Below, in pieces: positions 41,101 through 44,100 of a DNA stretch of 64,000 nucleotides. The position numbers were made by a program. Position 1 is the first letter of the stretch. Every line of letters starts with the position of its first letter. Where the stretch lies: the NCBI RefSeq assembly GCF_016903815.1, contig NZ_CP069973.1. One strand, written 5' to 3'. Source of the stretch: Escherichia coli. GTDB taxonomy: Bacteria > Pseudomonadota > Gammaproteobacteria > Enterobacterales > Enterobacteriaceae.

Positions 41101-44100
41101 CACTCTTCATCTGCTTTTCCTTGATGCTATAGGGGTGCTGAGACCGATAACGCATTTTGTAAACCATCCCTGTGAGAGCGAATATTCCGATATCTGGTTA
41201 TTAATTTATGATTCTTGTTTTATGTGATCGTGGTAGCGTTAATTCCGCTCATATATCATTGTAAAATATGGGTTTTATATGAATTATAATGCTTTCGTGA
41301 TAATACGCTGCGTGTATTAGGCGGAAAAAACTGATCTGGGGGATGTAGAAACTCAAGGAAGTAGCTATAATGCGCCCCGCCTCCATGTAGCAATCGAGGC
41401 GCGGAAGATCGTCGTCTCCGGTGAGGCGGCTGGACTTCAAATCCAGTTGGGGCCGCCAGCGGTCCCGGGCAGGTTCGACTCCTGTGATCTTCCGCCAGTT
41501 TACCTCTTCTGAACTCTCCCAATGTCAATAAATCTCTTCTAATCCCTTGTATATCAGTATTTATTTGTATCCAGAGGTCAACCTACTTCACCCCGTATCA
41601 AGTTTCTTTTGGGGGTACTTTAGGGGGTGTTATTTCCTATTGAAATACCAGCACCCCCATAATAGGAAAAATATGATATATAACAACGGCTTTTAACAAC
41701 ATCTTTGTTATACAAGGGGTGTATTGGGGGTATCAGGTTAGTTACTGGCAGAAATCCCCCTCAGGAACATGAATTCATCAAAAGCCGGAGGATGTCATGG
41801 CATTAACCGATATCAAAGTGAAAACCGCAAAACCCAAAGACAAACCCTATAAGCTTGCTGATGGCGGCGGTATGTATCTACTGATTAACACTAATGGTTC
41901 TAAATACTGGCGCATGAAGTACCGCTTTGCTGGTAAAGAAAAGATGCTTTCTATTGGCGTATACCCCGATGTAACGCTAGCCGATGCTCGCGAGAAACGC
42001 AGTGAAGCCAGGAAACTCCTCGCTGCTGGAGGCGATCCAGGGGAGGCAAAAAAGGAAGAAAAAATCGCGCAGCAAATGAGTCTGCAAAATACGTTCGAGG
42101 CTATTGCTCGCGAATGGCACCAGTCAAAAGCCGATCGGTGGTCATTACGCTATCGTGATGAAATCATTGATACCTTTGAAAAAGACATTTTTCCCTACAT
42201 TGGCAAGCGCCCTATTGCCGAAATCAAACCAATGGAGTTACTGGAAGCACTGCGTAAAATGGAAAAACGTGGAGCTCTGGAGAAAATGCGCAAGGTCCGC
42301 CAGCGCTGTGGTGAGGTGTTCCGCTATGCAATTGTTACTGGCCGGGCAGACTATAACCCAGCCCCCGATCTTGCCAGTGCTTTAGCTACACCGAAAAAAG
42401 TACATTTTCCCTTTCTTACTGCTAATGAACTTCCCCACTTCCTCAACGATCTGGCGGGTTATACCGGAAGTATAATCACTAAGACAGCTACTCAGATCAT
42501 TATGTTAACCGGCGTACGAACACAAGAACTGCGTTTTGCACGCTGGGAAGATATCGATTTTGAGACAAAATTGTGGGAGATCCCGGCAGAAGTAATGAAG
42601 ATGAAGCGACCTCATATTGTGCCGCTCTCTGAGCAGGTCATTATGCTATTTAAGCAGCTTGAACCAATCTCAAAACATCATCCCCTAGTCTTTATCGGTA
42701 GAAATGATCCCCGCAAACCAATTAGTAAGGAAAGCATTAACCAAGTAATTGAATTACTTGGATATAAGGGAAGACTCACAGGGCATGGTTTCAGACACAC
42801 CATGAGTACAATTCTGCATGAACAAGGCTTTAATTCCGCCTGGATTGAAATGCAGTTAGCTCATGTGGATAAAAATTCCATCAGGGGTACCTATAATCAT
42901 GCCCTGTATCTCGATGGCCGCCGTGAAATGATGCAATGGTACGCTGATTACATTGATTCACTCTCCAGCCGGGAAAGTTAAGTCAAAAATACTTTTCCCT
43001 GATGTTTTCCTCAATTAAGTATTTTATCCTCTGGCCTACAAGGCTGGAGGATTTTTGTTATTATATTATTTTTTGCGTCTTCAAACTTATTACAAAAACA
43101 TAATTAAAAGCAAATTGACATTTTTAAATTGGCAATTACAAAATACAGCCTTGCAGTTATTTCGATACCTTTAGCAAAGGAAAAGTTGATTCAGATATAA
43201 TTTAGCATTTCAATCATCTGACATCATTATAAAAAATGAGATTCACATAAAGATAAAATTATTGTTCTCAAGGAAAGCATGAAGGGGCTTTGTAAGCAAT
43301 ATTCATTCAGTGCCAAGACAGGACTTGATACACAGAATCTCAACTTTTATGCTCTCAGACTATATCACCACATGTTTTACAGGCTCAGAAAATGAACGAT
43401 AGATTATGCTTTGAAGTGCACGATAACCAGGGTTATTTCGTATTTCCGGATACCTGGTTTGGCCCATTGCTGGGGGAGTTTGAAGAAGTGCTTGATGCAT
43501 ACGACGCTGATGAAATCAGCGAGACGAGTTACATCAACAAACTCCGACGCCTTGCTCAACGGGAGCCGGACTTTATTGATATACACGCTCATCTGGCATA
43601 TGCATTTCTGGAACAGAATGCCCCGCGTAAGGCACTGAACGCCGCTCTTAAAGGACTGGCGGCAGGTAATCGTATCATCCCGGAAAGTTTCTGTGGTGAA
43701 ATAATCTGGATGCATCCCGAAAACCGGCCTTATCTGCGCGCGCTTTATGCAGCAATTCTCGCAAATGTGCACTTACAGCGCCATCAGGATGCGGTTATGC
43801 TCACTGATAAAATACTGGCATACAATCCTGAAGATAATCAGGGGGCTCGCTGGTTGTTGGGTTCAGAGCTGTTACGCACCGGCGATCATGAGCGAGCCTT
43901 CAGTGTACTGAAAGAGCATGCTGATGAATTTTCACCTTACTGGTATGAACTCGGTCTCCTGCATTTTCTGAACGGGGAACATGTTAAGGCCGCCACAGCT
44001 TTTCGCCATGGCTTTGCCACAAACACTTACATCGCAGAAATGCTGTGCGGAAATCTGCATCCATTTCCACTTGCTGTGTGGCATGACTTCTCCGGCTCTC

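Follow-up and report, generated by a model that had tools for sequence, protein, structure and literature searches.

Candidate integrase arm-type sites between selC and the integrase gene of a truncated P4-family islet in Escherichia coli

Attachment sites of related integrases and the selC locus

The GenBank record of the satellite phage P4 (NC_001609), whose integrase (Int) targets the tRNA-Leu gene leuX, lists 12-bp 'attP arm sequence repeats' built around TTGGGGGCAT, of which a tandem pair flanks the attachment core on either side and an inverted copy precedes int; this arm-repeat annotation is a sequence-based feature of the record. Autorepression of P4 int has been reported (PMC2951348), as it has for the homologues of the locus described here. 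Lambda Int, too, is a heterobivalent integrase with tandem sites on both arms (P1, P2 and P'1-P'3) and IHF-induced bends, an arrangement that our locus appears to share, and in KplE1 attL overlaps the promoter of the integrase gene intS, leading to negative autoregulation by the same general logic (PMC2951348). In contrast to both, the integrase considered here has an arm-binding domain from another sequence family (DUF4102/PF13356), and consensus, spacing and geometry of the sites differ as well.

Closer relatives reside at selC itself. PintI/attL of PAI I536, from the uropathogenic E. coli strain 536 (Chitto et al. 2020, PMC7286903), is the direct homologue, at the same selC location: this 77-kb virulence island has an intact attR and measurable excision, which was published to be precise and IntI-dependent, and the study mapped IHF binding and autorepression, not integrase sites. 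Likewise, the LEE element SpLE4 of O157:H7 contains a selC-intL junction at the same position, and its promoter PintL is autorepressed 4-fold (Panis et al. 2010, PMC2951348).

The window analysed here, a 64-kb stretch of E. coli DNA, carries a ~10-kb metabolic islet (TPR, LacI, MFS, GH31) at selC whose attR, unlike that of PAI I536, is deleted. ARAGORN placed selC (tRNA-Sec, anticodon UCA; Rfam RF01852 at 83.8 bits), the integration target, at 41403-41497 on the plus strand, and a 394-aa integrase ORF, int, occupies 41797-42981 on the same strand. The spacer between them extends exactly from 41498 to 41796 (299 bp), in agreement with the boundaries given in an earlier, sequence-only reading of this DNA.

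The intact int encodes a P4-family heterobivalent tyrosine integrase with the domains Arm-DNA-bind_3, Phage_int_M and Phage_integrase (PF13356, PF22022 and PF00589), preceded by a Shine-Dalgarno motif, GGAGG (41787-41791, +), which was read from the sequence and is conserved in the alignment. PF13356 covers residues 3-88 (E 2.8e-30), and residues 1-95 match the arm-binding domains of PDB entries 3JU0 (8e-31) and 3JTZ (5e-23). The protein is 96% identical to the O157 Sakai LEE integrase and 95% identical to IntI of PAI I536, the spacers of the latter island and the window being about 90% identical. With P4 Int it shares the same arm-binding domain, but the two proteins are only distantly related, all matches in the phage collection remaining below 60% identity.

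The 3' end of selC (41474-41497, +) represents the att core region. Here, TTCGACTCCTGTGATC (41474-41489) is identical to the 16-bp direct repeat flanking PAI I536, and exact copies of this core were found at the far end of that island (L007:34680-34695) and at other E. coli attR junctions. Just 3' of the tRNA gene, a conserved block, CCTCTTCTGAACTCTCCC (41503-41520, +), is mostly invariant in 13 relatives from at least nine genera and similar to the K-12 flank GCCTCTCCTGACGTTCTCC; it possibly constitutes a core-proximal (C'/B'-like) site for the integrase or a host factor. An ORF of 49 aa at 41547-41696 lacked any family match.

An ordered array of GGGGGT motifs in the spacer

Repeated GGGGGT motifs had been noticed in this spacer by the sequence-only reading, and the repetition is real. 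Four of the nine occurrences in the whole window, for which shuffles expect 19, fall in the spacer (41611, 41623 and 41726 on the plus strand; 41653 on the minus strand). The probability of four matches inside 121 bp is P < 5e-6 for nine points placed at random and P = 8.5e-5 for 19 random points, i.e. the clustering is well beyond chance (P < 1e-4). When the consensus was extended to WWDGGGGGTDY, four matches remained in the window, all of them in the spacer.

The motifs are laid out as a tandem pair 12 bp apart, an inverted copy and a promoter-proximal copy. The pair comprises the candidate arm-type sites P'1 (TTGGGGGTACTT; 41609-41620, +), with its run of five guanines (G5) at +114 from the tRNA end, and P'2 (TAGGGGGTGTTA; 41621-41632, +), the tandem copy 12 bp further on with G5 at +126. 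The candidate site P'3 is inverted (ATGGGGGTGCTG on the minus strand; 41649-41660; C5 at +157), and the promoter-proximal candidate P'4b (TTGGGGGTATCA; 41724-41735, +; G5 at +229) is preceded by a tentative, degenerate arm-type site, P'4a, bearing four guanines (CAAGGGGTGTAT; 41713-41724, +).

In 13 spacers from at least nine genera, the four sites are invariant while the flanking sequence drifts. Unchanged positions in the relatives include TTTTGGGGGT of P'1, ACCCCCAT.AT of P'3, T.GGG.TATC of P'4b and also AAGGGG of P'4a, which there shares a 10-nt repeat, GGGGTGCATT, with P'1. Conservation within E. coli is uninformative, because the whole spacer is 88-100% identical in this species. Natural variants exist nonetheless: JX21CE33 has lost exactly one 12-bp unit of the P'1/P'2 tandem; the PAI I536 spacer has G4 at P'4b and a 9-bp deletion downstream; and the spacer of the O157 Sakai LEE element measures only 195 bp, as a 105-bp deletion between GGGGTGCATT repeats takes out P'2, P'3 and the IHF segment described below.

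Counted from the tRNA gene's 3' end, P4 has its G5 runs at +115, +127 and (inverted) +157, compared to +114, +126 and (inverted) +157 in the window, with P'1 being the counterpart of the P4 arm repeat at +115, TTGGGGGCATAA. Common to both loci are thus 12-bp units with a TTGGGGG core, arranged as a tandem pair followed by an inverted copy before int. Differences concern the target (leuX vs. selC), the bases after G5, which are C(A) in P4 and T(A/G) in the window, and the length of the spacer (164 bp in P4 vs. 299 bp here): between the inverted site and int, the window has ~135 extra bp with the predicted IHF site and the promoter-proximal site or pair.

A sample of 80 loci encoding relatives of the integrase (58-100% identity) revealed the same architecture across the family. 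In 66 of these loci a tRNA gene for SeC, Arg, Thr, Phe, Ser, Gly or Asn lay directly upstream. A de novo search for 7-mers repeated in tandem at 11-13 bp and accompanied by an inverted copy recovered such a triple in 65 of 68 tRNA-integrase spacers, as opposed to 36 of 3400 shuffles (1%), although related loci share ancestry and neither this count nor the motif-domain association described next reflects independent events. Whichever the tRNA, the first site was located at about +112-116 or +122-125. The three sites of a locus share one motif class (GGGGGT, GGGGGC or TGTATA), and this class follows the strand of the arm-binding domain (SKYWRxKYR vs. SK(G/A)WR(F/Y)RY), not the target tRNA.

We consider it highly probable that the GGGGGT motifs are the arm-type sites of the neighbouring integrase, situated in the P' arm of a selC-integrated P4-family island. 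The sequence-only reading had proposed arm-type or regulatory sites, and the motifs, as predicted binding sites, fit the P4 repeats in sequence, 12-bp spacing, orientation and distance from the tRNA gene. Shown are the architecture, its conservation and the homology to a promoter that is IHF-bound and IntI-autorepressed; contact of the integrase with these particular motifs is inferred, with indirect support from the agreement between motif class and arm-binding-domain strand and from the IntI autorepression of the homologous fragment.

The spacer would then represent the int-proximal (P') arm and, once the element is integrated, the junction adjoining the tRNA gene. TT-GGGGG-T-R motifs, present as a 12-bp tandem pair, an inverted copy located ~30 bp downstream and one or two more copies near the promoter, would be bound by the arm-binding domain at the N-terminus of the neighbouring integrase, while the C-terminal domains of this protein would engage the core in the 3' end of selC. 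Where the element is mobile, the bound integrase may bridge to the core and, with IHF and the matching tandem pair of the far arm, form the recombination complex. Since the int regulatory region overlaps with the arm sites, repression of int transcription would be expected from this same binding.

The far arm, empty selC sites and the truncation of this islet

The architecture is kept across the family, and the excisable PAI I536 bears a matching pair on its other arm. On this far arm, 56 bp ahead of the 16-bp direct repeat, lies another GGGGGT pair with 12-bp spacing, TTTGGGGGTTCTTATGGGGGTTAC; counted from where the second G5 run starts, the tRNA-end equivalent is 84 bp away in PAI I536 and 82 bp away for the other-arm tandem pair of P4. 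The TTTGGGGGTTCTTATGGGGGTTAC block is invariant across five diverged attR arms (PAI I536 and four other E. coli), in one of which homology starts only ~10 bp upstream of the GGGGGT pair, and the far arm is present in 875 genomes.

The spacer was also looked for at empty selC sites and is absent from them: its sequence does not occur downstream of selC in K-12, and on the outer side of attR, the flanks of O104:H4, XH993 and ET734 are K-12 sequence. By megablast, 4378 of 5426 E. coli genomes had no match to the spacer, a number that includes genomes such as O157:H7 Sakai, in which a diverged or deleted homologue is missed by megablast. The family-wide architecture, the far-arm pair of PAI I536 and the absence from empty sites all bear out the earlier suggestion that the sites belong to the attachment region of the integrated element.

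In the window, attR and the P-arm pair are missing. The degraded right end of the islet (50460-51213) consists of an IS1 transposase, recognised by its DDE domain, followed by a blastn junction at 51213, where K-12 homology sets in again within the 3' end of setC. No second copy of the 24-mer core was found in the window at up to three mismatches, and the 16-mer core lacks a copy downstream of selC, its only other matches (17582 and 21295, three mismatches each) lying upstream. The far attachment site is lost through an IS1-associated deletion reaching into setC, and the window holds a truncated member of the P4-family attachment sites, with one arm only. Because the far attachment site is deleted, excision is no longer supported by the sites present here, which can serve int autoregulation only or are relics.

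Regulation of int and alternative explanations

Primer MC125 of the PAI I536 study (PMC7286903) corresponds to 41692-41711 of the window at 20 of 20 positions, and the first base of primer MC124 corresponds to 41715; the fragment beginning with MC125 bound scIHF, that beginning with MC124 did not (PMC7286903). The segment 41692-41714 of the int promoter region is identical in PAI I536 and the window and, by homology to PintI, constitutes a predicted IHF site, of which CTTTG.TATA.A.GGG is invariant in relatives. Within it, the IHF consensus WATCAANNNNTTR gave no convincing alignment by eye.

IntI strongly repressed its own promoter in a construct that begins at the equivalent of 41692 (PMC7286903). 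P'4b is the sole full GGGGGT-type site in the repressed pMC5/pMC7 fragment, with P'4a as a degenerate neighbour, and is a likely operator for integrase autorepression. It is perhaps not the sole one, since PAI I536 has only G4 at this position and is still strongly autorepressed. A consensus scan of the plus strand detected no sigma-70 promoter, and manual placement of -35 and -10 elements within 41715-41796 was unconvincing, partly because relatives carry indels of 0-9 bp at 41756-41765, so that an overlap of operator and promoter is tentative.

The sequence-only reading had also singled out an AT-rich inverted pair (atttcctattg/aataggaaa). Indeed, TTTCCTATT (41633-41641) and AATAGGAAA (41661-41669) form a perfect 9-mer match that flanks CAGCACCCCC and surrounds P'3, the whole spanning 41633-41669. 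Perfect inverted repeats of at least 9 nt occur in 22% of dinucleotide shuffles of the spacer (5% with a gap of at most 30 nt). Pairing at 9/9 positions is confined to this lineage, 12 relatives having 4-7 of 9 complementary positions, and pair counting in the 13-sequence alignment revealed covariation no better than in shuffles. With decay in relatives without compensation and a chance rate of 5-22%, a functional palindrome was dropped. The pair is real as a match, but, being only marginal and not conserved, it is probably fortuitous and not a site in its own right; the relevant part is the GGGGGT copy in inverted orientation (CACCCCC), which the pair encloses incidentally.

The same arms might instead act as RNA, with GGGGGTG...CACCCCC and TTTCCTATT...AATAGGAAA folding into a 5' leader, a pseudoknot or a terminator for selC or int. 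Their order (A-B-A'-B') has a pseudoknot-like topology, and a GGGGGUGUUAUUUC/GAAAUACCAGCACCCCC hairpin is used in the MFE fold; fold energies, however, are no better than those of shuffles (z = -0.86 over 81 nt, -1.12 over the full spacer), an Rfam scan matched tRNA-Sec only, and no terminator-like site, for selC or otherwise, was found when the spacer was scanned. In relatives, the TTTCCTATT/AATAGGAAA helix is broken without covariation, the inverted site mostly lies directly at the start codon of int, and what the motifs hold constant is their DNA position, not pairing potential. RNA structure in the spacer is unsupported; neither Rfam nor folding against shuffles nor the covariation count favoured an RNA element, and we find this explanation scarcely credible. 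Improbable, if to a lesser degree, is binding of the 12-bp-spaced repeats by a recombination directionality factor (RDF; a Vis/AlpA/Xis-like excisionase) in place of the integrase. Excisionase sites, too, are typically direct repeats spaced by one helical turn, a counter-consideration to the assignment as arm-type sites; PMC7498355 describes direct repeats at about this spacing as characteristic of RDF sites, and P4 Vis was reported to be active in the same region (PMC2951348). Typical RDF arrays are confined to one arm, unlike these repeats, which are present on both arms and in either orientation, and whose motif class varies together with the arm-binding domain of the integrase itself. Moreover, IntI alone repressed a fragment with only P'4b and the degenerate P'4a, and a limited check of small ORFs in the islet gave no RDF-like Pfam match.

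Current function is a separate matter, and the motifs could be inert relics, i.e. former arm sites without present function that are kept because the island is young. This is conceivable, though we rather doubt it: this islet has lost attR and the far-arm pair by deletion, variants shed sites without obvious consequence (the 12-bp deletion of JX21CE33 and the 105-bp deletion of O157 Sakai), and the high spacer identity among E. coli says little about constraint, but int retains an intact ORF with 95-96% identity to active homologues, and the published autorepression of the homologous promoter makes the promoter-proximal part regulatory wherever int is expressed. A relic origin would agree with the integrase arm-site assignment on the sites' identity. 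With integrase arm-type sites as the preferred assignment, the sites of this window would be left only to autoregulate the still-intact int.

Although well preserved, the spacer is an ordinary component of a mobile-element attachment site of known type, and this islet is immobilised: of its two arms, one is left, with an intact int, and the other is gone. For the selC-island clade, we tentatively propose, at less than even confidence, that the P' arm was expanded by ~135 bp, the paralogous P'4a/P'4b pair and the IHF site forming an autoregulatory operator separate from the recombination sites P'1-P'3, and that recombination between arm pairs recurrently disables islands. If true, the GGGGTGCATT-mediated 105-bp deletion in O157:H7 could help explain the locked LEE and the weakly autorepressed PintL. 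The published PAI I536 study described autorepression and IHF control with integrase sites unmapped, and the present comparison supplies base-level candidates for them: TTGGGGGT(A/G), at four or five positions in the int-side arm and at two in the far arm. Natural deletion variants and the three-way correspondence between motif and domain (GGGGGT, GGGGGC, TGTATA) may serve as a guide to specificity. At selC, one integrase/attachment module (95-96% identical integrases) serves as the anchor of three different kinds of element: PAI I536 is an alpha-haemolysin island, the element of O157:H7 contains the LEE, and the islet described here is a harmless one for sugar utilisation.

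Clustered GGGGGT motifs between selC and the integrase gene

Downstream of selC (tRNA-Sec; 41403–41497, plus strand, from a tRNA gene call and Rfam RF01852), the interval singled out by the sequence-only reading, 41498–41796, coincides exactly with the selC–int spacer, as the tRNA ends at 41497 and a 394-aa ORF for a complete P4-type tyrosine integrase starts at 41797. The integrase comprises Arm-DNA-bind_3 (residues 3–88), Phage_int_M and Phage_integrase domains, and the arm-binding domain structures 3JU0 and 3JTZ both match its N-terminal part. Genes for a TPR protein, a LacI-family regulator, an MFS transporter and a GH31 hydrolase, as well as an IS1, lie 3′ of int. 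Since homology to K-12 restarts at 51213, within the 3′ end of setC and just ahead of yicL, the selC element is an islet of roughly 10 kb.

GGGGGT occurs nine times on both strands of the 64-kb window (19 expected from shuffles), and four of these copies fall within 121 bp of the spacer (41611, 41623 and 41726 on the plus strand, 41653 on the minus strand; P < 5e-6 for nine random points, 8.5e-5 for 19), confirming the repeated motifs noted earlier. The extended consensus WWDGGGGGTDY has four matches in the entire window, all within the spacer. A repeat finder returned CTTTTGGGGGT and CTTTAGGGGGT, spaced 12 bp, plus GTATTGGGGGT. The candidate arm-type sites thus form a tandem pair (P′1, 41609–41620; P′2, 41621–41632) and an inverted copy (P′3, 41649–41660), with a degenerate site (P′4a, 41713–41724) and a fourth full site (P′4b, 41724–41735) closer to int. 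An additional CCCCC run, ATCCCCCTCAGG at 41756–41765, follows the last arm site and precedes the Shine-Dalgarno sequence; its opposite strand (GAGGGGGAT) does not fit the arm consensus, and the position is an indel hotspot, with differences of 0–9 bp in relatives and the run missing from pathogenicity island I of strain 536 (PAI I536).

The AT-rich inverted pair, also proposed as an arm-type or regulatory site, does exist as a perfect 9-mer (TTTCCTATT, 41633–41641; AATAGGAAA, 41661–41669), but that interpretation found no support. In dinucleotide shuffles, some perfect 9-nt inverted repeat appeared in 22% of cases, or 5% with a gap of ≤30 nt, making the pair statistically marginal. Complementarity is 9/9 only in the window's lineage and 4–7/9 in the other 12 aligned sequences, and no pair-count measure could be told apart from that of shuffles. 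RNA folding gave z-scores of –0.86 (41600–41680) and –1.12 (whole spacer), Rfam matched nothing in the region except the tRNA, and a search for a terminator-like site found none. Function in this stretch is ascribed to the inverted copy of GGGGGT (CACCCCC), which the AT-rich pair probably brackets by chance.

By megablast, the spacer was found in 1048 of 5426 complete E. coli genomes, at 1050 places, all chromosomal, nearly all single-copy and none annotated; the copies opened lie between selC and an integrase gene, and one is cut off by IS1 after 54 bp. The post-selC sequence of K-12 recurs outside the far ends of the selC islands of O104:H4, XH993 and ET734, so that K-12 represents the unoccupied selC site. 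This K-12 sequence differs from the spacer, so the spacer's presence at empty sites, which would have refuted the arm-type or regulatory reading, was not observed. A post-selC block kept among island copies, CCTCTTCTGAACTCTCCC (41503–41520), resembles the empty-site flank GCCTCTCCTGACGTTCTCC (K-12 locus, 2323–2345), and hence either the recognised core region may run on for ~25 nt past selC, or the K-12 flank, which has the pseudogene yicT nearby, may itself be left over from an ancient island. The selC–int spacer of E. coli 510016 is identical to that of the window, but IS150 interrupts yicI in that strain (L001:14457–18221) and the window's yicI (37400–39718) is intact, so the strain backgrounds differ even though the spacers do not.

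Counterparts in phage P4 and PAI I536

The phage P4 record (NC_001609) annotates 12-bp "attP arm sequence repeats". In int-sense, these comprise a tandem pair on one side of the core (GTGGGGGCACAA and AAGGGGGCATAT), the 20-bp core at the 3′ end of tRNA-Leu, a tandem pair on the int side (TTGGGGGCATAA and TTGGGGGCATCT) and an inverted copy at the int start (TTGGGGGCACAT on the other strand). [quoted passage not shown] The motifs differ at essentially one position (T(A/G) after G5 in the window, C(A) in P4). The first arm site of the P4 class (phage P4 locus, 3942–3985, int-sense; GGGGGCATAAT) includes a –10-like CATAAT, with TTGAAA 18 nt upstream; plausibly, this would be an int promoter directly occluded by bound integrase.

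IntI of PAI I536 from uropathogenic strain 536 shares 95% identity with the window integrase, and the spacers share about 90%; among the differences, the last site of PAI I536 has G4, and 9 bp are deleted further downstream. In their examination of the PAI I536 intI region, Chitto et al. (2020) reported IHF binding to a promoter fragment starting at primer MC125 and none to one starting at MC124 (PMC7286903). MC125 matches 41692–41711 (20/20) and the MC124 equivalent runs from 41715 onward; because these fragment starts delimit IHF binding, homology places a putative IHF-binding segment at 41692–41714. IntI strongly repressed its own promoter: construct pMC5 (from MC125) was repressed and pMC7 (from MC124) still mostly so, with ~20-fold more ON cells (PMC7286903). 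The only GGGGGT-type content of both fragments is the last site. The integrase sites were left unmapped in that study, whose authors called for footprinting (PMC7286903), and PintL, the O157:H7 homologue, showed 4-fold autorepression (Panis et al. 2010, PMC2951348). The spacer is thus homologous to a region for which both IHF binding and autorepression by IntI have been shown.

Excision of PAI I536 is precise (PMC7286903), and its distal 16-bp direct repeat, TTCGACTCCTGTGATC, lies at L007:34680–34695. Inside the island, 56 bp upstream of this repeat, TATTTGGGGGTTCTTATGGGGGTTAC contains two GGGGGT 12 bp apart; the start of the second G5 run is 84 bp from the tRNA-end equivalent, compared to 82 bp in the far arm of P4. 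This far-arm type is present in 875 E. coli genomes, with the block ATTTGGGGGTnCTTATGGGGGTTAnTCATTTATCCAACAC invariant in five diverged copies; in ET734, homology starts only about 10 bp ahead of the GGGGGT pair. A search for a second core copy in the window found none, and the islet's right end (50460–51213) consists of an IS1 copy followed by a junction within the 3′ end of setC, reflecting an IS1-associated deletion; the islet's far arm has therefore been lost. The deletion took with it the distal core repeat, the GGGGGT pair of the far arm and most of setC. Site-specific recombination therefore cannot release the islet, and only an autoregulatory role of the sites can remain in the window.

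Conservation and natural variants across integrase relatives

A scan for the integrase in one genome per species yielded 80 loci (58–100% identity) across Enterobacterales, with a tRNA for SeC, Arg, Thr, Phe, Ser, Gly or Asn directly upstream of the integrase in 66. A de novo search for any 7-mer that recurs in tandem at 11–13 bp and also occurs inverted no more than 45 bp away recovered the pattern in 65 of 68 spacers vs. 36 of 3400 shuffles, the related loci being non-independent through shared descent. The first site lies at about +112–116 or +122–125 whatever the tRNA; overall, arm-site motifs in the 80 loci occur about 100–175 nt past each tRNA. All three sites within a locus share one motif class, i.e. 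GGGGGT(A/G), GGGGGC (mostly CAT, some CC/CTT) or TGTATA(G). The class tracks a strand of the arm-binding domain (integrase residues about 33–43; S(K/R)YWR(M/L)KYR in G5 loci, SK(G/A)WR(F/Y)RY in TGTATA loci) independently of the target tRNA, and integrases targeting selC occur in all three classes. Such modularity would be expected of an N-terminal domain reading these sites.

Most relatives resemble P4 in having spacers of 160–177 bp, with the inverted site directly next to the start codon of int, whereas spacers of the window's clade (289–299 bp) continue for about 135 bp past the inverted site, a stretch containing the IHF segment, the degenerate site CAAGGGGTGTAT and the fourth full site TTGGGGGTATCA. 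An alignment of 13 sequences from at least nine genera revealed the invariant blocks TTTTGGGGGT, TT.GGGGGT, ACCCCCAT.AT, ATAACA, CTTTG.TATA.A.GGG and T.GGG.TATC, with drifting sequence in between. E. coli JX21CE33 (L005:1477–1820), whose int is truncated by IS1, lacks exactly one 12-bp tandem unit, CTTTTGGGGGTA, which looks like slippage between tandem arm sites in a decaying copy. In the LEE-bearing element SpLE4 of O157:H7 Sakai, whose integrase is 96% identical to that of the window, the spacer from selC to ECs_4534 is 195 bp long (L090:10989–11183). A 105-bp deletion has removed P′2, P′3 and the IHF segment. Its endpoints fall in the 10-nt repeat GGGGTGCATT, common to site 1 and the degenerate site in relatives, which suggests paralogy between the promoter-proximal pair and the first one.

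A candidate regulatory and recombination element

Heterobivalent tyrosine integrases, such as those of lambda and P4, bind arm sites through their N-terminal domain and act on the core through their C-terminal domains, while DNA-bending proteins, e.g. IHF, bring the two together. The conserved architecture of the spacer, which the empty site lacks, supports the arm-type or regulatory reading for the GGGGGT motifs; the bases contacted by the integrase, the promoter position and the role of each site are inferred. Integrase would occupy P′1/P′2 and P′3 as well as the far-arm tandem pair and, together with IHF, assemble on the core at the selC 3′ end for island integration or excision. Repression of int would result from integrase occupying the promoter-proximal site(s) and IHF the segment 41692–41714.

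The spacer sites add a new, unannotated member to a type of element whose first description came from phage P4, and the integrase sites of the clinically relevant selC family appear to be unmapped in the literature searched. The correspondence between motif class and arm-binding domain may give a handle on the recognition code.
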